Source: Escherichia phage Lidtsur. From it: a stretch of DNA of 42,291 nt. The notes beneath the pieces are model-generated. The model was not told where the DNA came from. It worked only from the letters and a program-made list of their open reading frames with translations, and did no database searches. The stretch is taken from the sequence record NC_048177.1; one strand, 5' to 3'. The position numbers and the translations under genes were made by a program. Within the stretch, counting starts at the first letter, position 1. Every line of letters starts with the position of its first letter. This document shows positions 2,585 through 42,291 of this stretch, piece after piece.

Positions 2585-2875
2585 ATGGCTAAAGTAACTG
2601 CGTACTTCTCTGCATCCCAAAAAGATATCATCGCTGTGGTCGGCGACGGTCTGGCTCAGGGCAACATGGCACTGTGCACCAGCGGCACCGAGAGCGGCGA
2701 CACTTTCGACACCAAAGAAAGCGCCATCGCTGGGCTGCCGACTCTGTTCGACGATATCAAAAAGCTGGGGGCTATTGGCTTCCTGATTCACGGTGGCGCG
2801 TTGAATGATGACGCTGCTGAGCGTATGGTCGCCGATGGTTATGAAGAAATCGGCTCTATCGAAATCGAAGAGTAA
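2585..2875 (+). CDS. small acidic early protein, paralogue family member 5 (96 aa)
   Basis: Internal ATG of track ORF 2513-2875; GAGGG SD; strongly acidic C-terminus. Confidence 0.65.
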   Translation: MAKVTAYFSASQKDIIAVVGDGLAQGNMALCTSGTESGDTFDTKESAIAGLPTLFDDIKKLGAIGFLIHGGALNDDAAERMVADGYEEIGSIEIEE

Positions 2876-2897
2876 TGCCAGCGCTTGAAGTGTTGGC

Positions 2898-2937
2898 GAT
2901 GATTAGCTGCCATGTAGGTGTTGGCACGCTAATCATC
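2898..2937 (+). promoter_or_regulatory. long imperfect stem-loop (about 15 bp stem), candidate RNase III site or early terminator
   Basis: GATGATTAGC+TGCCA pairs with TGGCA+c+GCTAATCATC around a 9-nt loop; lies in the only sizeable gap of the early region; no downstream U-tract. Confidence 0.4.
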
Positions 2938-2985
2938 TACATCGTTCGCGCTGCCCATAAATCATACAAACGTTAGGAGTTTTGC

Positions 2986-3162
2986 ATGAAGATTGCGGTA
3001 ACACGGAGCGGTGCGAGCCACGTTGCGCACAAGATGCACTTCCTGTTTCACTCGCTGTATCTCACAGCGGCTGCGCTCGAAGGGCATCTGTTCTATAGCA
3101 TCATGGCAGGGGGCACCTTACTGTTCATGTTAGGCACGGCGGTGCTTGGCGATGAACACTAA
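2986..3162 (+). CDS. small hydrophobic membrane protein (58 aa)
   Basis: ATG 8 nt after TAGGAG; translation MKIAVTRSGASHVAHKMHFLFHSLYLTAAALEGHLFYSIMAGGTLLFMLGTAVLGDEH; below track cutoff. Confidence 0.4.
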   Translation: MKIAVTRSGASHVAHKMHFLFHSLYLTAAALEGHLFYSIMAGGTLLFMLGTAVLGDEH

Positions 3163-3325
3163 TCTGCTGGGCTGGGTGAAGAGGGTGGAGCGTCGCCACT
3201 GGGAGACAGCCATCATTCTCAAGGTGGGTATCAGCGCTGGACTGGCTGCTGCTTACTTCTTGCCTACCTCCGCAGCAATAGCCGTTGGCATCAGCATCAA
3301 CTTGCTATGGTTGTGGAAGCTGTAA
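3152..3325 (+). CDS. small hydrophobic membrane protein (57 aa)
   Basis: ATG overlaps the stop region of the preceding small ORF; translation MNTNLLGWVKRVERRHWETAIILKVGISAGLAAAYFLPTSAAIAVGISINLLWLWKL has one clear TMD. Confidence 0.35.
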   Translation: MNTNLLGWVKRVERRHWETAIILKVGISAGLAAAYFLPTSAAIAVGISINLLWLWKL

Positions 3326-3665: not shown

Positions 3666-3998
3666 ATGGCATTCCACAAAGTGAAAGTGTATCGCGGCAA
3701 GGACTTCGAGGATGGTGAGCACGTTGTCGTGCTGACCTACCTGTTGCCCGACTACCGCGAGGGTCTGGTTGTGTTTAACCAGTTTGAAATCTTAGGTCAT
3801 CACATGACCGCAGAAGATGCAACAGACGAACAGATTATTGAGCGTGTCAAGGCGTACACTGGTGGCCGCCCGTTCATCATTGACCTGCTGAATGACCAGC
3901 ACTTCAATGCTGCCGACCGCACGATGCGGCAATGGGTCGCTACCATGACGCCTATCTTTCAGGGCGACATGTATCTGTTCGGCATAGCCGAGGGATAA
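3666..3998 (+). CDS. hypothetical protein (110 aa)
   Basis: Track ORF, tightly packed behind upstream gene. Confidence 0.55.
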   Translation: MAFHKVKVYRGKDFEDGEHVVVLTYLLPDYREGLVVFNQFEILGHHMTAEDATDEQIIERVKAYTGGRPFIIDLLNDQHFNAADRTMRQWVATMTPIFQGDMYLFGIAEG

Positions 3999-4000
3999 TC

Positions 4001-4315
4001 ATGAAAGTAAGCAGAGGTTTCCTGTTTGTCCTGCTGGTACTGGCTACTCTGTATGTCAGCACCTGCACAATGGCACTGGCTGCCACTATGGAGAAGGTGC
4101 ATTTGGATGCGTATGATGTACCGCTGGGCGCACCTGATGGACAGGTGTACTCTGCTTGCGTCATTGACCTGCATCAAGGCGGCACCATTAGCACGCTGGC
4201 CTACGTTGGCGAGTGCGAAGCGGTGCTGCCACACCTCAAAGAAAAACTGGAGGGCGATGGCACGACCACCATCGTCACTCTATCAATCAATGGTCACAAT
4301 ATTAATCTGACATGA
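4001..4315 (+). CDS. predicted secreted or membrane-anchored early protein (104 aa)
   Basis: Internal ATG of track ORF with GAGGG SD; N-terminus MKVSRGFLFVLLVLATLYVSTCTMALA looks like a signal peptide. Confidence 0.55.
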   Translation: MKVSRGFLFVLLVLATLYVSTCTMALAATMEKVHLDAYDVPLGAPDGQVYSACVIDLHQGGTISTLAYVGECEAVLPHLKEKLEGDGTTTIVTLSINGHNINLT

Positions 4316-6032: not shown

Positions 6033-6233
6033 ATGCTCAAAGTATTAGCGCTGTTTGTAGCTGTAGTTATTTTGTGGGGTGTTGCGTGGGTAGGTATCGC
6101 CTATCTTATTGCACCCTATATCGGGACGCAGCTTACTGGTGTGTTAGGCACACTGCTTGGCTTCGTCGTGGGCGCAGTTGGTATGACCAAGTGCATCGAC
6201 TATGGCTGGGGTAAAGGGTGGATTAAATGGTAG
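6033..6233 (+). CDS. small membrane protein, two predicted TMDs (66 aa)
   Basis: CGGAGGAA SD; sequence is almost entirely two hydrophobic helices. Confidence 0.5.
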   Translation: MLKVLALFVAVVILWGVAWVGIAYLIAPYIGTQLTGVLGTLLGFVVGAVGMTKCIDYGWGKGWIKW

Positions 6234-34102: not shown

Positions 34103-36483
34103 TGGCGAACAGCTATAACACCTATGTGGCGAACGGGACGCAGACTGCGTTCCTCGTCACCTTTGAACAACGAGTGTTCACGCAGATTCAGGTGTACGTC
34201 AACTCTGAGCTACAGACTGGCGGCTACACCTACAACTCCGTGACCAAGCAAATCGTATTCACATATCCACCGACTGCTGGCGCTATTATCCGCTTGCAGC
34301 GGTACACTGACGAAACCCTGCTCAACAAGTTTGGGCAGGACGCCGCATTCACCGGGCAGAACCTTGATGAGAACTTTGAGCAGATTCTGTTCAAAGCAGA
34401 AGAGACTCAGGAGGCGTGGCAAGCTCCGTTAGACCGGGCGCTGCGCATCCCTAACTCTGAGGTGTCCATCAGTGCGCTGCCGACCGTGGCATTCCGTAAG
34501 AACAAGGCACTGGGCTTTGACGATAATGGTCAGCCCTTCATGATTCCTCTGGTGGATATTCCAGACTCCGCACTGGCTATCGCGCTGGCTATGCCGGACG
34601 GCGGCAAGTGGATTGGTACTCTGGCTGGTGGCACGTTCCTGAACCGTCAGGATACGGTGTGCCTGTCCGAGTTCACCAACAACTCTGCGTACGCTACTGT
34701 GTCTGCGGCGGTGCAGGCTTGCTTCGATTATGCAGCAGCCAACAACAAAGTCGTTGATGCTCGCGGCTGGGTAGGGACTCTCAATGCCAACGTTACCATG
34801 ACCAATATTGAGGTGGTAGGCGGTACGTGGAAAGGCACCTCTGACGTATTCATCGTCAACTCACTGTTCCGCAACTTCAAAATCAACAACCTTCGTCTGC
34901 GTCCATACGGCGGCGACACTCGTATCCGCAACGGTCTATTTGATGGTAAGCCTACGCTGAGCAAGGTAGCGAGTATTATGCTCCAAGCAATCCCTGCCAC
35001 TGGCACCATTGAGGTAACTGACTGTGAGTTCCGCAACGGTCTGTATGGTATCTTGCAGCAGGGTACTGGTTCAGTTATGACTCGTGGGCTGTTCCGCAAC
35101 CTGTCGTTCTATGACATGGGCGGTGACGGTATTGAGCTTAACGTTGTCCAGAACCACTATGACGACGGCTGCTTGATTGAGAACATCGTGCTTGAGAATA
35201 TCGACAGCACTGGTCAGGCTCCGATTAACAACTCCAACTGGGGTATTGGTATCGGCGTGGCTGGTAGCTCTCCGTATGGCCTCGACACGCCAGACAGCTA
35301 TTACGCCAAGAACATCACTATCCGCAACGTCAAAGCGCGGCGCTGCCGTCAGGTTGTGCACTTCGAGCAGGTTCGTGACTCTCTGATTGAGAACATCGAC
35401 GGCGACCCTGACCAGAACGTATCGAACGGCTCTGGCCTTACTATGGCTACTGTGCTGTGCTATGGTGCGCGTCGCGTAACCATCAATGGTGTGCGCGGTG
35501 AGCCTGTAGTCACGTCAGGTACTGACCCGCACAGCATCCGTATTGTGATGCTGGAGTGGGGTACTAACGCAGGTGTTGGTGCTCGCGGGCCATGTCAGCA
35601 CATGACTGTGCGTAACGTGTCCTCGCGCAACGGGCGCTTCTATGCTGGCGTTGGCTGTCAGGACGTTGGGCTGGATAACACAGCTACGTTCGAGAACATC
35701 GACTGCTACAACTTCCGGCTGTTCGGTGTTGCTCGTGAGCTGAATCTGGCAAACATTACCTGCACAGTGTTCGACTGCATTGGCGATGACTCTGCTGGCG
35801 GTACGTCCTCTAACGGTTATCTGGCCGTAGGCCGCACCACACTCAACATGACCAACGTTAATGCGTTGTCTGAGGACTTGGTTGCTAACCAAGGATGGAG
35901 CCGCTGTGCGTACTCGTACGTGTCCAGCATTGCATCCAACGTGTATGCCCGTCCATATCCCCGTCAAGGTATTGACGGTGGTATCGGCGTACCCGTGTGG
36001 CCGAGCAACCGAGTGTACGTGATGCCTGATGCCACTGACGTAAACATCACTAACTGGGACGGTACTCAATTCCCTGCTGGACGCGAGTTCGTAGAGGGCG
36101 ATTTGATTATCCGTACGGACGGTAAGTTCTTCACAGTAACCCGTAGCGGTGCTTATATCCCAGCTATTGCTGAGTATCAGGTTAAGGCTGCTGCTGTTGG
36201 ACAGACTTATCTGGCAAGTAACTACCCAATGGACGGTAACAAAGGCACGATGGTCTGGATTTACAGGTACATGTTGACTCCGGGCACCCACATCAACATT
36301 CCGGGTGCTGGTGCTGGCGGTAGCGTATTGCAGACCACCATCGCTCGCGGGCCGTACCGTACGGATGTGAACAACCCAACCAGTGAGATTCGTGTCGGTA
36401 TCTCTGACCCAATCCAGACGGCGATTCCGGCAGGTACGCAGCTCTCTGCGACTTACCCAATCTCGTTCCGTTCACCAGCATAA
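34102..36483 (+). CDS. tail fibre / tailspike with T7-type N-terminal anchor and beta-helix C-terminal region
   Basis: N-terminal ~150 aa (MANSYNTYVANGTQTAFLVTFEQRVF...) resembles the T7 gp17 anchor; remainder shows periodic ENI/NIT/RNV motifs typical of a right-handed beta-helix. Confidence 0.8.
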   Translation: MANSYNTYVANGTQTAFLVTFEQRVFTQIQVYVNSELQTGGYTYNSVTKQIVFTYPPTAGAIIRLQRYTDETLLNKFGQDAAFTGQNLDENFEQILFKAEETQEAWQAPLDRALRIPNSEVSISALPTVAFRKNKALGFDDNGQPFMIPLVDIPDSALAIALAMPDGGKWIGTLAGGTFLNRQDTVCLSEFTNNSAYATVSAAVQACFDYAAANNKVVDARGWVGTLNANVTMTNIEVVGGTWKGTSDVFIVNSLFRNFKINNLRLRPYGGDTRIRNGLFDGKPTLSKVASIMLQAIPATGTIEVTDCEFRNGLYGILQQGTGSVMTRGLFRNLSFYDMGGDGIELNVVQNHYDDGCLIENIVLENIDSTGQAPINNSNWGIGIGVAGSSPYGLDTPDSYYAKNITIRNVKARRCRQVVHFEQVRDSLIENIDGDPDQNVSNGSGLTMATVLCYGARRVTINGVRGEPVVTSGTDPHSIRIVMLEWGTNAGVGARGPCQHMTVRNVSSRNGRFYAGVGCQDVGLDNTATFENIDCYNFRLFGVARELNLANITCTVFDCIGDDSAGGTSSNGYLAVGRTTLNMTNVNALSEDLVANQGWSRCAYSYVSSIASNVYARPYPRQGIDGGIGVPVWPSNRVYVMPDATDVNITNWDGTQFPAGREFVEGDLIIRTDGKFFTVTRSGAYIPAIAEYQVKAAAVGQTYLASNYPMDGNKGTMVWIYRYMLTPGTHINIPGAGAGGSVLQTTIARGPYRTDVNNPTSEIRVGISDPIQTAIPAGTQLSATYPISFRSPA

Positions 36484-36492
36484 GGAGTAATC

Positions 36493-36798
36493 ATGGCATC
36501 CGCTAACAAGCAGCTCGACGCGCTGCATCGGATGCTGGTTGAGTACCTTACTGACCGCTTGGTTGAGGCCCGGAAGAAAGATGAGGATGGCAACATCCTC
36601 GCTCCGATGGCCGCAGCCGAGCTGTCGGTACTTCGCCAGTTCCTCAAAGACAATGGCATCGCTGCTGATGCTGACCACGCCGACGACCTGCTGGCTCTCC
36701 AAGAGCAGCTCAAGCAGGAGAAATCGGATACTGCACGAAAGTCCATTATGGACGCTGCGATCACTTCAATCGCAGAAGATAGCGGGATGATGCACTAA
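36493..36798 (+). CDS. terminase small subunit (DNA maturase A)
   Basis: 101 aa helical protein directly upstream of the large terminase; AAGGAG SD. Confidence 0.55.
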   Translation: MASANKQLDALHRMLVEYLTDRLVEARKKDEDGNILAPMAAAELSVLRQFLKDNGIAADADHADDLLALQEQLKQEKSDTARKSIMDAAITSIAEDSGMMH

Positions 36799-38558
36799 TG
36801 GATTTACAACGCCGCATGGTGATGGCAGGAATCGTTCGCGCTCACTACGAGAACAACTTCCCGCTGTTCCTGCATGACTACTTCGCATGGCTGGGCTTTG
36901 ACCTCACTGAAATGCAGCTCGACATTGGCCGCTACATGGCCGACCGGACGCTCAAGAACAAGTGCGTCATGGCTCAGCGCGGTGAGGCTAAGTCCACCAT
37001 CGGTATTGCTCGCGCCCTGTATGAGTTCGTCCAGATGCCAAACGCCACTGTGCTGCTGGTATCTGGTTCGGACGATTACGCAGGTACGCTCTCGCACGCT
37101 ATCGTGTCTGCCATTATGCAGTGGGAGCGCCTTGAGTGGCTGCGCCCTGAGACTCGCGCTGGCGCACGTACGTCCTATACGGACGGCTTCGACGTGCACC
37201 ACGCATTCCGTATCCCTGACAAACAGCCCTCTGTCAAAGCGGTCGGTATCTTCGGCCAGTTGCAGGGGAACCACGTATCATTGCTGATTGCGGATGACGT
37301 GGAGACTACCAGTAACGGTAGCTCTCCTGCCAACCGCGCCCGTATCGCTACCCTGACCAAAGAGTTCGCCGCTATCGCCAACGACGGTGCAGAGATTCTA
37401 TACCTCGGCACGCCTCAGACTCAGGATTCCATCTATAACTCGCTGCCACAGCGTGGCTTTGACGTACGCATCTGGCCCGGTCGCTTCCCTACGCCGGAAG
37501 AAGAAGAGCGGTACGGAGGCTGTCTGGCCCCGTGGATTAAGCAGAAGATGGATGGCCACCCTGAGCTGCGCACTGGATACGGCATTCTTGGTAATCGCGG
37601 TGCTCAGACTGACCCGCAGCGCTACTCAGAAGAGAAGCAGTTGCAGAACGAACGTGACTATCAGCAGGCAGGCTTCCAGCTCCAGTTCATGCTGGACACG
37701 TCGCTGTCTGACGCGCTCAAACAGACACTGCAACTTCGTGACTTAATCCTGTTCCACGGCTCTCCGCAGTCGGCACCGGAGTATTTGCACTGGTCTAATC
37801 ATCCGCGTCATCTGGCAGAGCTGCCTATGGACTTCCCGCTCGCCCGCGCCCAGCTTTATCTGGCCGCTGATTTCTCGGAGACTTATGTACCATTCACGAA
37901 TACCAAGGCGTTTCTTGACCCTGCTGGTGGTGGGACGGACGAATCAGTTATCTTTGCCACAGCTTCTATCGGCCCGTTTATCCATGTCCTCGGTATGCAC
38001 GTCTACCACGGAGGGCAGACGGAAGAGAACATCAAGACGGCGGTAGAATGGCTGCATAAGATGGGCGTTCTGCACATCACCATTGAAGACAACATGGGCC
38101 ACGGTGCAGTAACCAACATGTATCGTGGTGAAATTAAGCGGCAGGGATTGGCCATCGGCTGCGAGGGTACTTACTCCAGCGGCCAGAAAGAAGTGCGTGT
38201 GATTAGCCGACTCAGCCCAATCCTCCAGCGCCACCGCGTGGTGATGCACTGGTCTGTGCTTGAGGAAGACTTGCGCCTATGCCGCAACATGCACAATGGC
38301 GGGCGGGAATACAGCTTGTTCTGGCAGATGCAGAACATCACGCAGGACAAGAACGCAATACCGCACGATGACCGAATTGAAACCCTATCCGCTGCCGTGT
38401 ACCTCCATGCTGAGGTGCTCCAGCAAGACGAACATGAAGAGGCCCAGCGCCGTGAGGCTAAGGCTGCCAAAGAGTTCTTGGCTAACCCAATGGGTTACGA
38501 TGACTCTAAATGGCGCAGCCACAAACCCGTGCGCGGAACTCGTCGGAGAATTAGATAA
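36798..38558 (+). CDS. terminase large subunit (DNA maturase B)
   Basis: 586 aa, same length as T7 gp19; Walker A-like QRGEAKST and Walker B-like LLIADDVE. Confidence 0.85.
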   Translation: MDLQRRMVMAGIVRAHYENNFPLFLHDYFAWLGFDLTEMQLDIGRYMADRTLKNKCVMAQRGEAKSTIGIARALYEFVQMPNATVLLVSGSDDYAGTLSHAIVSAIMQWERLEWLRPETRAGARTSYTDGFDVHHAFRIPDKQPSVKAVGIFGQLQGNHVSLLIADDVETTSNGSSPANRARIATLTKEFAAIANDGAEILYLGTPQTQDSIYNSLPQRGFDVRIWPGRFPTPEEEERYGGCLAPWIKQKMDGHPELRTGYGILGNRGAQTDPQRYSEEKQLQNERDYQQAGFQLQFMLDTSLSDALKQTLQLRDLILFHGSPQSAPEYLHWSNHPRHLAELPMDFPLARAQLYLAADFSETYVPFTNTKAFLDPAGGGTDESVIFATASIGPFIHVLGMHVYHGGQTEENIKTAVEWLHKMGVLHITIEDNMGHGAVTNMYRGEIKRQGLAIGCEGTYSSGQKEVRVISRLSPILQRHRVVMHWSVLEEDLRLCRNMHNGGREYSLFWQMQNITQDKNAIPHDDRIETLSAAVYLHAEVLQQDEHEEAQRREAKAAKEFLANPMGYDDSKWRSHKPVRGTRRRIR

Positions 38559-39238
38559 TGTCCCTCGCTTCCATCACAAACGCCCAACGCTACAACGTGG
38601 GTAATGCAGTGAACATCGCGGCGCATAATACTCAGCGCTTCATCAACAACACCAAGGCACCAACAGCGGCTCAGGAAGCTCTGATTGCTGACAGTATGCA
38701 GGACGCAGCAGATGCCCTTGCCGTTGCCGGGTACTTCGCACTGCCCGCTGGCACTGTCACCGTAAGCGACGGCGCAGCCACTGCCGTGCTCAACTCTGCT
38801 GGTGCAGACAGTCACCCAGCCACTGCCGTTGTTACTGGCGGTGCACTGACTGGTGTGAAGATTACGGCAGACACCACGGCTATCGTTGACCTGAACGATA
38901 CGGTCGAGATTCGTCGGGCTGACGGCTCCGTGACTGGTATCACTACTGGCTCTACCCGTGTAGCCGCTGGAGTGCTGGCCAACGTCCGGCTGCCTATCAC
39001 TGCTGATGCGGTGGTCAACAACGGTACTGTGTCTGTGCGCAACTCTGCCGCAGCAGACCCGCACAACGCCACCGTCGTAGTCAACAACCAAGGTGTCCTG
39101 CAAGGTGTGAACCTCGCGGCCACTGCTGCTATCGTCGATAACGGCGATGCACTCACTGTGCCTGTAACTGGCACGTACACAACCACTGCCACCATCTCCG
39201 TTGCTAACGGTGTGGTTACTGGCATCGTACTGTCCTAA
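38558..39238 (+). CDS. Ala/Thr/Val/Gly-rich repeat protein of unknown function (226 aa)
   Basis: GGAGA SD; internally repetitive (ATAVLNSAGAD / ATAVVTGGALTGV / VTGITTGS / ANGVVTGIVLS); N-terminus shares a motif with the next ORF. Confidence 0.5.
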   Translation: MSLASITNAQRYNVGNAVNIAAHNTQRFINNTKAPTAAQEALIADSMQDAADALAVAGYFALPAGTVTVSDGAATAVLNSAGADSHPATAVVTGGALTGVKITADTTAIVDLNDTVEIRRADGSVTGITTGSTRVAAGVLANVRLPITADAVVNNGTVSVRNSAAADPHNATVVVNNQGVLQGVNLAATAAIVDNGDALTVPVTGTYTTTATISVANGVVTGIVLS

Positions 39239-39250
39239 TGGAGAATACTC

Positions 39251-39442
39251 ATGGCTCTTTCTGCATCCACGCCAGCTCAGCGCTACGAGCTGATTAACGC
39301 CTGCAACAACCTGACCAAAGTGTGCCACAAGTTTGAAGAAGACGGCTATCTGGCCACTGGCAACACTGCGCTCATGACTAAGCTGCAAGCAGCTATCACC
39401 CGCGTGCAGACTGCACTGACGGCTATCGCTAACGCCGCATAA
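39251..39442 (+). CDS. small protein paralogous to the N-terminus of the preceding ORF (63 aa)
   Basis: MALSASTPAQRYELINACNNLTK vs MSLASITNAQRYNVGNAVNIAAH; GGAGA SD. Confidence 0.45.
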   Translation: MALSASTPAQRYELINACNNLTKVCHKFEEDGYLATGNTALMTKLQAAITRVQTALTAIANAA

Positions 39443-39453
39443 GAGGTACTCGC

Positions 39454-39942
39454 ATGAAACTGTCTCGGCTAATGGCCGGGGCAGTCCTCTCACTGTCACT
39501 GACATTGACGGGCTGCTCCGCGACAAGCGCACTCTCTGCCGCTGCCTCTGTTATCTCGCCTGACAAACCAGAGCTGACGGCTCAGGTCGGTGCTGAGAAT
39601 ACCAAGCAGGGTATCGGTGTCACTGCAAAGCAGTCCGACGATACCAAAGTCGGCGACGTATCTGGTAACGCGAAAGTGGATACCGCTAAACAAGGTAGCG
39701 ACTCGACAACTGTGAAGGACGTCACAGGAGGCTCTGTAAACGCTTCTAAGCAGGGTCAGCAGATGAGTAATGGAAACGTGCAGGCTCGCACTGTAAACGT
39801 CTCTCAGAGCGACCCACGCAGTCTCCTGTGGGCTTTTGCAATGGGCCTTGCAACTATTCTTGGTCTGGTAATGTGGTTCGTACCATCTCCGTGGAAAAGG
39901 AAGGTGAAAGATGACGGAGCAAAAGAAGGAGCCAACTCCTAA
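39454..39942 (+). CDS. candidate unimolecular spanin (lipoprotein with C-terminal TMD)
   Basis: Lipoprotein signal with lipobox LTGC; periplasmic K/Q/S/D repeat region; C-terminal TMD LLWAFAMGLATILGLVMWFV followed by basic KRKVK tail; adjacent to endolysin. Confidence 0.5.
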   Translation: MKLSRLMAGAVLSLSLTLTGCSATSALSAAASVISPDKPELTAQVGAENTKQGIGVTAKQSDDTKVGDVSGNAKVDTAKQGSDSTTVKDVTGGSVNASKQGQQMSNGNVQARTVNVSQSDPRSLLWAFAMGLATILGLVMWFVPSPWKRKVKDDGAKEGANS

Positions 39943-40294
39943 CAACCATTCGCGTATGGGCGCGGTGGAGGCTCGTATGCAATCCGTAGAAACTCGCCTC
40001 GACAAACACGAGATTCAAATTGCCAACCTCGAAAAAGGTGACGCTGCCATGATTGCTAAGCTGGCGGAGAACGACTCCCGCTGGGTTGAGATTCAGCAGC
40101 AATTGCGCGTTGTCGAGCAAATTCAGGATATCCAAAAGACAATGAGCCATATCGGTAAACTGTTCACGTACACGGCTCATGCCGTCAAGTGGTGCCTGCT
40201 AACCGCATCCCTTGTTAGCGGTATCTACCTCGCTATCAAAGCTGGCGACTTAGCATCGTTGCTGGCATTCATTCAAGCTCTAATGGGGATGTAA
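39911..40294 (+). CDS. membrane-anchored coiled-coil protein, candidate holin or lysis regulator
   Basis: AGGAAGG SD; N-terminal heptad-like region then C-terminal hydrophobic segments (WCLLTASLVSGIYLAI, LASLLAFIQALMGM); immediately upstream of endolysin. Confidence 0.4.
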   Translation: MTEQKKEPTPNNHSRMGAVEARMQSVETRLDKHEIQIANLEKGDAAMIAKLAENDSRWVEIQQQLRVVEQIQDIQKTMSHIGKLFTYTAHAVKWCLLTASLVSGIYLAIKAGDLASLLAFIQALMGM

Positions 40295-40830
40295 TGACTA
40301 ACTTTGAAATCTGTATGAAGTTCACCGGGCTGGCTGAGGGTGGCTATACCAAGCTGCCCGGTGACACTGGAGGGGAAACCAATCATGGAATTAGTGACGC
40401 TCGTGATGGAAAGCTGGATGGTCGAGCTTGCGGTGTCCCTACTGGGCTTGGCGGGACTATTTGTGTTCCTATCAAGCAGCTCACCAAAGAGCAAGCCGAA
40501 GCTATCTATCGCCGGGACTACTTCACCCCAATCCGTGGTGACGAGTTACACCCTGCGATTGCATGTGCCGTGTTCGACTTCGGTGTCAACTCCGGCGTCG
40601 CCCGCGCAGCTAAAGCTCTACAGCGGGTATGCGGTGTTGCACAGGACGGTGTTATCGGTGCTGCAACCGTGGCAGCGGCCAAGCGTCTGGAACCTCACTC
40701 CGCAGCAGCATCCATCTGTGACATTCGTATTGAGTTCCTAAAGGCTTCTACAGCCCCGACAATCGTTCGGTATAGGGATGCCTTGGTTGCTCGTGCAAAA
40801 CGCTGTAGCGCTTACTGTGCGACGTTATAG
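40294..40830 (+). CDS. endolysin, GH108-type N-terminal domain
   Basis: FTGLAEGGYTKLPGDTGGETNHGIS matches the EGGY...GG.T..GI signature of GH108 muramidases; last gene before the terminal non-coding region; no N-terminal TMD. Confidence 0.75.
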   Translation: MTNFEICMKFTGLAEGGYTKLPGDTGGETNHGISDARDGKLDGRACGVPTGLGGTICVPIKQLTKEQAEAIYRRDYFTPIRGDELHPAIACAVFDFGVNSGVARAAKALQRVCGVAQDGVIGAATVAAAKRLEPHSAAASICDIRIEFLKASTAPTIVRYRDALVARAKRCSAYCATL

Positions 40831-40899
40831 GGGCATTGAAAGCTGGGACATTGAACAGGCGTAATACCCCGGCTTGAAAATTGACTATTTGTGCGTGGG

Positions 40900-41410
40900 C
40901 CTCCCTCGACTCGAAGGAGCGCCTGCGCCCCCGTACGCCTGTGCGCGTGCGCGTGCATGACGTGTGCGCATTATGCGCGTGTGCCTGCGCGTGCGGTATT
41001 GCTCGCGTGCGTGCGGTAACAGCTCGCGCGTGCCCGTTTCCATTGTCGCGGTGTGGCGTGCTGTGCTCTGCGCGGTGCTGTGCCACTGCTGGCTGTGCCA
41101 CTGCTACCACTGGACGCGCCTGCGCTGGCCTGCGCTGGTATCGGCTCCGGTCGTGGCGGGTATCTATCTCTTTTGCCTGCGTGCTGCGCCTGCGTCCTGT
41201 CACTGCCTGCTAGCGCCTGCTATCTGCCTGCGCTCGCCTGCCTCCAGCTACTCCAGCTAATCGCGTCACTGCTACTAGCCGTTGCTAGCCGTGATACTTG
41301 CTATCCGTTCGCGTTCTCTCGCTATCCACTGCGTGTCCAGCTCGCTCCGCTCCGCGCTCCGCTACCGCACTGCGTGCTGCGTCGCTTACGCTGCGTATCG
41401 CTTACAGCTT
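40900..41410 (+). repeat. A-depleted GC-rich short-repeat tract, probable terminal-repeat / packaging region
   Basis: About 500 bp almost free of A on the + strand, built from reiterated TGCGCG, CCTGCGC, GCTGCG, GCTCCGC units; non-coding; sits between last and first gene. Confidence 0.5.
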
Positions 41411-41570
41411 ATACTGTAACAGTTACTTTCATTTACTCACTGATTTATAAAGAGTTTTAGACGGTTATTAGCTACTGATTGAGCTATTCAAGTATCTATC
41501 CAATCAAATATTTAATCCTATTGAATACATACACTTACCTACATTTTGAGCTATTCAGTGAAAATAATTC

Positions 41571-41599
41571 TTGCAATGCTGTTTGTGATTTGCTGTAAT
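41571..41599 (+). promoter_or_regulatory. sigma70-type early promoter candidate P1
   Basis: -35 TTGCAA (41571-41576), 17-bp spacer, -10 TGTAAT (41594-41599). Confidence 0.55.
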
Positions 41600-41675
41600 T
41601 CATCTCGCCGGGTAGCAATGCAGCGCTACACGGTGGGCTAGATGGTTAGCCAGCTCTTTAACAATCTGGAGTGTA

Positions 41676-41704
41676 TTGACAAGCGAGTCTCACTATGCTG
41701 TAAT
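41676..41704 (+). promoter_or_regulatory. sigma70-type early promoter candidate P2
   Basis: -35 TTGACA (41676-41681), 17-bp spacer, -10 TGTAAT (41699-41704). Confidence 0.65.
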
Positions 41705-41756
41705 ACGCTCCAGATTGACAGGGCAAGCAAGCCTGACAGTCAGTAGTAAAAAGTGG

Positions 41757-41786
41757 TTGACAAGCCGATTCAAGATGTGATGTAAT
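41757..41786 (+). promoter_or_regulatory. sigma70-type early promoter candidate P3
   Basis: -35 TTGACA (41757-41762), 18-bp spacer, -10 TGTAAT (41781-41786); P2 and P3 share the TTGACAAGC core. Confidence 0.6.
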
Positions 41787-42291
41787 CGGCACCGAGTTGA
41801 AAGGATGAAAAGCATCCTGCTCTGAGTGAACGCAAACTGGCCGCGTAGTGTCACGGCTCACTGGGTATCCGCCGCAGGTTGGAACTGGGTGAGGCATCGC
41901 CGAAAGGCAACGGTATCGCAACATTGCTAACGCCGTAGGGGTAGCGCCCGATGCAGGGAACAGAGAAGCGCGATAGACGCAGCGCAGTATCAGTACAATC
42001 CCAAACGTCTTATAAGCATTGTAGACAGTAGGGGACGTAGCAAAACACACTCGACTTTGAGCTGGCGCGTAGCAGGTTGCGCAGGGTATGACTGAGTGTT
42101 GAGCGGAGTCGCTGAAAGATACTTGAATCCGATGATAAATGCCGGATTATGCGAAATGGGCGGGGCGATTTTTCAGGGTAGTGAATCCGACAAGCCATTC
42201 CATGCCGAACAAACCTAGTACGCTACTGGTACGGCGCGTCACAATGGGTTCACTATCCACCTGAAAATAGCCAACAACTGGAGAAATAACT

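Follow-up and report, generated by a model that had tools for sequence, protein, structure and literature searches.

A predicted unimolecular spanin, a candidate tail-anchored holin and a soluble GH108 endolysin in the lysis module of Escherichia phage Lidtsur

Escherichia phage Lidtsur is a published member of the genus Bonnellvirus within the Autographiviridae (PMC7552041). The window analyzed here is its whole genome of 42,291 nucleotides, in which the plus strand carries all large genes. Three consecutive plus-strand open reading frames (ORFs) constitute the host-lysis module of Lidtsur. They encode a 162-residue protein assigned to the T1 gp11 family of unimolecular spanins (39454-39942), a 127-residue protein that is the holin candidate by position and topology (39911-40294) and a 178-residue soluble endolysin of family GH108 (40294-40830). 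The limits of all three ORFs coincide exactly with those in an earlier sequence-only reading of this DNA, hereafter the original prediction. The first two genes overlap by 32 nucleotides, and the stop codon of the second overlaps the start codon of the third in the sequence TAATG, by which translation of the endolysin may be coupled to that of the preceding gene. Over the lysis region, Lidtsur shows approximately 83-87% nucleotide identity to phage J8-65, the '-sur' phages, ROV85, Kc261 and others.

The 162-residue protein is very probably a unimolecular spanin (u-spanin) of the T1 gp11 type, as judged from sequence comparison. It matches PHROG 1804 ('Rz-like spanin') with an E-value of 3.4e-37 and aligns with T1 gp11 over its full length in BLASTP (33% identity, E = 8e-16); the alignment spans the lipobox (LTGC versus LSGC in T1), the AQVGAENTKQ motif and the C-terminal transmembrane domain (TMD). 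Orthologs are annotated as Rz-like spanin or u-spanin. A lipoprotein signal peptide ending in the lipobox is read from the sequence at 39454-39516. The N-terminus, MKLSRLMAGAVLSLSLTLTGC, carries the canonical lipobox L-T-G-C, with the codon of Cys21 at 39514-39516. Position +2 after Cys21 is occupied by Ser22 and not by Asp, which is compatible with sorting to the outer membrane under the established Lol-avoidance rule (Asp at +2). Lipobox and Cys are kept in 12 spanin homologs, including those of KP34-like and PhiM1 phages, and in T1 gp11. The sole strong hydrophobic segment in the C-terminal part comprises residues 122-146 (39817-39891, mean Kyte-Doolittle hydropathy 2.08); this predicted TMD is kept in all aligned homologs and is followed by the basic tail KRKVKDDGAKEGANS. 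The original prediction had read lipobox, TMD and basic tail as the topology of a unimolecular spanin, a reading that is strengthened by the homology to the validated T1 gp11.

The periplasmic part of the protein contains two tandem units of about 21 residues, S61-G81 and S82-G101 (39634-39756). The self-alignment score is 45, compared with 27.9 +/- 5.1 for shuffled sequences, and none of 200 shuffles reached 45, in agreement with the repetitive character noted before. The unit is present once in T1, KP34-like and PhiM1 phages, twice in the bonnellviruses including Lidtsur and three times in LIMEzero (L004:1966-2532). The extra length of the Lidtsur spanin (162 residues versus 133 in T1) is thus due to tandem duplication of this periplasmic unit. 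In its remaining features the protein resembles the T1 gp11 family: a lipobox signal, the AQVGAENTKQ motif, a periplasmic domain rich in Ser and Thr and without coiled-coil character, and a TMD at the C-terminus. The setting differs, however. The T1 spanin gene follows those of the holin and the endolysin, whereas the Lidtsur gene precedes both, and members of the T1 gp11 family are partnered by a pinholin and a signal-arrest-release (SAR) endolysin, whereas the partner in Lidtsur is a soluble endolysin. The lambda Rz/Rz1 pair acts at the same lysis step and likewise links inner and outer membrane, but it consists of two proteins, whereas Lidtsur has a single polypeptide.

Much of this was on record. 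T1 gene 11, on which the u-spanin class is founded, complements a lambda RzRz1 defect, and u-spanins were found in 58 of 677 phages surveyed (PMC6139136). The J8-65 and LIMEzero orthologs have already been placed in the T1gp11 family (Kongari et al. 2018, PMC6139136), where they are described as 'unusually long' and as the sole members without a pinholin and a SAR endolysin; the beta-strand pattern of the periplasmic domain is preserved in both (PMC6139136). As these sister-phage u-spanins were already cataloged, the description of the Lidtsur cassette as 'atypical' in the original prediction was overstated.

A search of six frames with every nested start detected a canonical lipoprotein signal in the 162-residue ORF only, so that a hidden Rz1 is not to be expected. 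Relaxing the scan added one more plausible plus-strand gene, the early ORF 4001-4315, with the non-canonical sequence VSTC. An Rz1-like or second outer-membrane spanin ORF, whether embedded, overlapping or separate, was not found in the genome by the six-frame and relaxed scans.

The 178-residue protein is almost certainly a soluble GH108 muramidase and an ordinary member of a known family, to judge from its matches. It scores 79.5 bits against Glyco_hydro_108 (PF05838; cut-off 21.2), matches PHROG 315 (endolysin) with an E-value of 2.5e-39, and is similar to PDB entries 7dnp (E = 1.4e-24), 2is5 and 2ikb, the alignment covering residues 11-157. An EGGY motif is found at residues 15-18, and AEGGY (14-18) aligns with DEGGY of 7dnp. 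A C-terminal match to PG_binding_3 is below threshold (19.3 versus 24.6 bits). Compared with other GH108 N-acetylmuramidases, nothing notable sets the Lidtsur endolysin apart. The protein has no SAR or signal sequence, no 19-residue window reaching a hydropathy of 1.4. Because a hydrophobic N-terminus is lacking, the endolysin depends on a holin whose holes let a folded protein pass; family assignment and holin dependence are as originally predicted. When Lidtsur was aligned with eight bonnellvirus relatives, third-position variability in codons 136-150 of the endolysin gene (40699-40743) was 0.07, compared with 0.2-0.6 elsewhere in the gene; this dip may mark a conserved nucleotide element near the genome end or may be due to chance in a small sample.

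The 127-residue protein, which is 100% identical to a protein recorded as hypothetical in Lidtsur, combines an N-terminal coiled coil of about 90 residues, one TMD, an invariant GD and a short amphipathic tail. Its AlphaFold model (predicted local distance difference test score 83) consists of a single helix from residue 12 to 110 and a short helix from 114 to 125. A regular 3-4 heptad pattern runs through residues 16-68, with hydrophobic residues in 12 of 16 a/d positions. The hydrophobic core of the TMD, W94-I109 (40190-40237), comprises 16 residues, many of them small, between K93 and K110-A-G-D. Next come the invariant G112-D113 and a 14-residue tail, which is amphipathic in the relatives and is not a second TMD. 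Of the original description, the N-terminal coiled coil is retained, whereas the 'C-terminal hydrophobic segments' are reduced to one TMD and an amphipathic tail. Across 12 members of the family, the 15 residues preceding the core contain 34 K/R and two D/E; the C-terminal part ranges from neutral to acidic. Such a charge distribution fits an N-in/C-out topology in all 12 members, in which the coiled coil would be cytoplasmic and the tail periplasmic.

The gene may have two starts. An internal ATG (Met23, 39977-39979) lies 6 nucleotides downstream of an invariant GGAGG and would yield a 105-residue product. Met23 and the upstream GGAGG are invariant in the bonnellviruses and LIMEzero; Met23 is not kept in remote relatives. 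The long start is annotated in most records, with invariant residues M1-T2-E3, whereas the J8-65 annotation and PHROG 35530 represent the shorter form starting at Met23. LIMEzero has an in-frame ATG directly after a TGA at the place equivalent to the long start. A dual start giving products of 127 and 105 residues is therefore possible, as read from these signals, and would be comparable to the dual-start motifs described for lambda S and SPP1 gp24.1.

The gene is present in all 20 records of bonnellviruses and LIMEzero, always annotated as 'hypothetical protein' and always adjoining the endolysin gene. A word-indexed search returned close relatives only; a profile search of the whole library and a second, alignment-based search revealed a remote family, and pattern scans of IMG/VR and a metagenome collection added one locus (L024). 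The remote relatives are similar over their full length (126-149 residues, 20-31% identity to the Lidtsur protein). Reciprocal tblastn searches from two of them led back to LIMEzero, and from one of these also to the bonnellviruses, with E-values of about 1e-10. The context was readable in 11 remote lineages, and in each of them the family gene lies directly upstream of an endolysin gene. These endolysins belong to PF00959 and not to the GH108 family, and none has an N-terminal hydrophobic segment. Several of the remote contigs carry a T7-type terminase shortly upstream of the family gene, and two (L015 and L016) a T1gp11-like u-spanin directly upstream of it; most remote relatives have no adjoining lipoprotein gene. 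No membrane protein other than the 127-residue protein and the spanin occurs throughout the clade.

Given its position and topology, the 127-residue protein is probably the missing holin of this phage group. It is the best and only conserved holin candidate, and that it acts as a holin in the way proposed below is considered moderately probable. Its naming as holin candidate in the original prediction is upheld by conservation throughout the clade and by its location upstream of soluble endolysins, the function being deduced from position and topology.

Several observations weigh against this assignment. The 127-residue family matches none of the holin families described in Pfam, PHROGs or NCBIfam: PHROG 35530 is of unknown function, and the Pfam and NCBIfam matches are sub-threshold matches to coiled coils. 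Unlike typical class I and II holins, the 127-residue protein lacks a charged tail at its C-terminus; it ends instead in an 18-residue near-neutral tail, and its hydrophilic domain is N-terminal. The hydrophobic core has just 16 residues and is barely hydrophobic in one relative (P0046). Most of the remote contexts are short metagenomic contigs, and a second holin elsewhere in those genomes is possible. The analogous XhlA and SPP1 gp24.1 (see below) are reported to need a second protein, no counterpart of which is visible in Lidtsur. A Foldseek search with the AlphaFold model found no counterpart among viral structures (best E-value 1.8), as expected for a single long helix. One bonnellvirus genome description named just the endolysin (PMC8402661), and no named holin was found in the literature on Bonnellvirus, J8-65 and LIMEzero, the LIMEzero genome paper (PMC3126476) not being covered.

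The closest analogs of the 127-residue protein are XhlA of PBSX and SPP1 gp24.1 (PF10779). Both likewise have a coiled coil in the N-terminal part and one TMD at the C-terminal end, and their genes immediately precede that of the endolysin. This raises the alternative that the Lidtsur protein is a holin component or timer of the XhlA type, unable to make holes alone and partnered by the product of some small ORF lacking annotation, by one of the variable membrane proteins of the early region or by the spanin's own TMD. In Bacillus, XhlA and SPP1 gp24.1 are reported not to be detrimental alone and to need a partner holin with two TMDs, XhlB and gp26, respectively (PMC6316719). The gene of SPP1 gp24.1 also has a second start, internal and in frame, that is served by a ribosome-binding site of its own (PMC6316719), which is reminiscent of the possible dual start in Lidtsur. 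The 127-residue family and XhlA both have an EN-x-x-(x)-W motif, and there is weak similarity in sequence: PF10779 matches five of 10 family members below threshold (best E-value 0.0019) and reaches its threshold in none of the 10, the Lidtsur protein scoring 15.3 bits against a gathering threshold of 34.7. In a control, SPP1 gp24.1, a bona fide XhlA-family protein, scored 53 bits. An hhalign comparison of the family alignment with SPP1 gp24.1 gave a probability of 56%, over 30 coiled-coil columns only. The Lidtsur protein is about 40 residues longer than XhlA and gp24.1, with an extra helical segment between the EN..W motif and the TMD, the GD motif and a C-terminal amphipathic helix; furthermore, XhlA and gp24.1 belong to phages of Gram-positive hosts, whereas the host of Lidtsur is Gram-negative. 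A counterpart of XhlB or gp26 is not visible in Lidtsur. There is no ORF with two TMDs in or beside the cassette, and the endolysin gene is followed by the non-coding genome end; the only ORF of the genome with two TMDs (6033-6233) occurs in five of about 20 relatives; and no small membrane ORF lies beside the family gene in any of the 11 remote contexts. With similarity limited to the coiled coil and below the Pfam threshold, membership in the XhlA family is not established and the resemblance is one of analogy. Dependence of the 127-residue protein on such a partner is considered rather unlikely.

It is also conceivable that the 127-residue protein has no role in lysis and is a membrane-anchored assembly, exclusion or regulatory protein, the holin being encoded by another gene or the endolysin leaving the cell by another route. 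The absence of homology to described holin families and the unusual topology are in line with this, and coiled-coil proteins serve many functions. Such an explanation is nevertheless improbable in view of the invariant position of the gene beside soluble endolysins of two unrelated families, among relatives only 20-31% identical, of the overlap between its stop codon and the endolysin start, and of the lack of an alternative conserved membrane protein in the clade.

A function as an inner-membrane (Rz-like) spanin, with or instead of the lipoprotein, would account for the coiled coil and the single TMD, which are hallmarks of Rz. It is very improbable, however: the order is reversed with respect to Rz, the TMD being C-terminal; there is no signal sequence to export the charged N-terminal domain of about 90 residues; in all 12 members the positive-inside distribution assigns the coiled coil to the cytoplasmic side; the lipoprotein has an inner-membrane TMD of its own and is homologous to a self-sufficient u-spanin; and in most remote relatives there is no lipoprotein gene beside the family gene.

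An ORF in the +1 frame within the endolysin gene (ATG at 40385, extending to 40741) is preceded by a GGAGG-like sequence and encodes a single hydrophobic segment (MELVTLVMESWMVELAVSLLGLAGLFVFL...), which could form a TMD. A holin gene embedded in an endolysin gene has a precedent in Staphylococcus phage 187, and in Lidtsur and the eight relatives aligned above the frame is open and the ATG and the hydrophobic segment are kept. That this ORF is the real holin gene is nevertheless scarcely credible and was rejected on substitution patterns, since its amino acid identity (71-77%) falls short of the 86-90% found for the nucleotides and the 88-93% for the endolysin, third codon positions of the endolysin vary freely across it (0.33-0.6) without dual-coding constraint, the hydrophobic segment is lost in LIMEzero, and long alternative-frame ORFs are common in this genome of 55% G+C. 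The ORF evolves like a non-coding frame and looks like a by-product.

Other places in the genome were considered for a conserved holin. The small membrane ORFs at 2875-2976, 2986-3162, 3146-3325, 3932-4315 and 6033-6233 have no PHROG match and occur in two to seven relatives only. The ORFs with predicted TMDs in this early region (2875-3325, 4001-4315 and 6033-6233) encode proteins of 33, 58 and 59 residues, one of 66 residues with two TMDs and one of 104 residues with a signal-peptide-like N-terminus ending in VSTC; they could be accessory genes of host takeover or exclusion. In SP6 and JG068 the holin gene lies between those of the tailspike and the small terminase subunit (PMC3765740), an interval that leaves no room in Lidtsur (36483 to 36493). 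Hydrophobic ORFs after the endolysin gene (40881-41460) were rejected as holin genes, the DNA there being the G+C-rich, mostly unannotated left genome end.

With the 127-residue protein taken as the holin, the last three genes would form a complete three-step lysis module of a T7-like podovirus, expressed by late transcription, an overall picture that we regard as reasonably probable. Anchored in the inner membrane through its one TMD near the C-terminus, the 127-residue protein would keep its long N-terminal coiled coil on the cytoplasmic side and would oligomerize, opening holes at a critical level. The GH108 muramidase would leave through these holes and degrade the murein. By then the u-spanin would already be held in the outer membrane by the lipidated Cys21 and in the inner membrane by its C-terminal TMD; once the murein meshwork is gone, it would join the two membranes and destroy the outer membrane. 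The membrane-fusion step is adopted by analogy from work on T1 gp11 and lambda Rz/Rz1.

As a more specific and tentative proposal, which falls somewhat short of being the expected outcome, the 127-residue family may represent a self-sufficient tail-anchored holin with a single short TMD, a cytoplasmic coiled coil of about 90 residues that drives oligomerization, and a periplasmic GD motif and amphipathic helix. This topology is not represented among the characterized holins of phages of Gram-negative bacteria. The family may be a distant, partner-independent offshoot of XhlA and may be regulated by the two starts at Met1 and Met23.

The gene order of the module is typical of the clade and is no peculiarity of Lidtsur. 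The original prediction had correctly recognized the order spanin, holin candidate, endolysin as different from the usual one, which is that of T1 (holin, endolysin, spanin), but the order itself is not unusual. The annotations of KP34-like Klebsiella phages and PhiM1 show it after the terminase genes; for the KP34-like viruses it was presented as a characteristic of the genus (Eriksson et al. 2015, PMC4411677); and in LIMEzero the same three positions are filled, the middle gene being annotated as 'hypothetical'. The cassettes of KP34-like phages (Drulisvirus) and Phimunavirus consist of u-spanin, pinholin and SAR endolysin (PMC4411677). They share with Lidtsur the position after the terminase, the gene order and a homologous u-spanin, whereas in KP34-like phages and PhiM1 the holin of 83-88 residues is non-homologous, as is the endolysin, which has a hydrophobic, SAR-like N-terminus. 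With the spanin shared and both other proteins different, holin and endolysin seem to have been exchanged together, as a matched pair.

The u-spanin, its pairing with a soluble endolysin, the gene order and the endolysin family are already known. The new element is a specific candidate holin family for the bonnellviruses and LIMEzero, where none was named. If the candidate works alone, it adds a tail-anchored coiled-coil type of holin for Gram-negative hosts and offers a simple system for studying how a cytoplasmic coiled coil sets the timing of lysis. The copy number of the spanin repeat (one, two or three) provides a natural series on the length of the periplasmic span in u-spanins.

Upstream of the module, the two terminase subunits are encoded on the plus strand at 36493-36798 and 36798-38558, followed by ORFs of 226 and 63 residues and then by the three lysis ORFs. 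The DNA of Lidtsur from about 40906 to 42291 matches positions 1-1463 of J8-65, which comprise the terminal repeat and the unannotated left end; this makes the endolysin gene the last one on the physical genome. In the window the Lidtsur genome stands in permuted form. Short G+C-rich tandem repeats are found at 40941-41368 and are followed by an A+T-rich stretch, and ORFs with hydrophobic translations listed in 40906-42291 are probably not genes. A scan of 38300-42291 for consensus promoters and terminators gave nothing above the expectation from shuffled sequences.

The two ORFs of the interval between the terminase and lysis genes (38558-39238 and 39251-39442) seem to belong to one modular family together with sequences at loci L014, L023, L024, L026, L028 and L030. 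Its members range from 40 to 226 residues across phages and share motifs resembling LTNAQLQ...QQFAQGT at the N-terminus and G-A-I-T-A-I-A-L-S at the C-terminus; the C-terminus matches PHROG 10405 ('virion structural protein'). Lidtsur has also been cited by several papers on anti-phage defense and anti-defense proteins.

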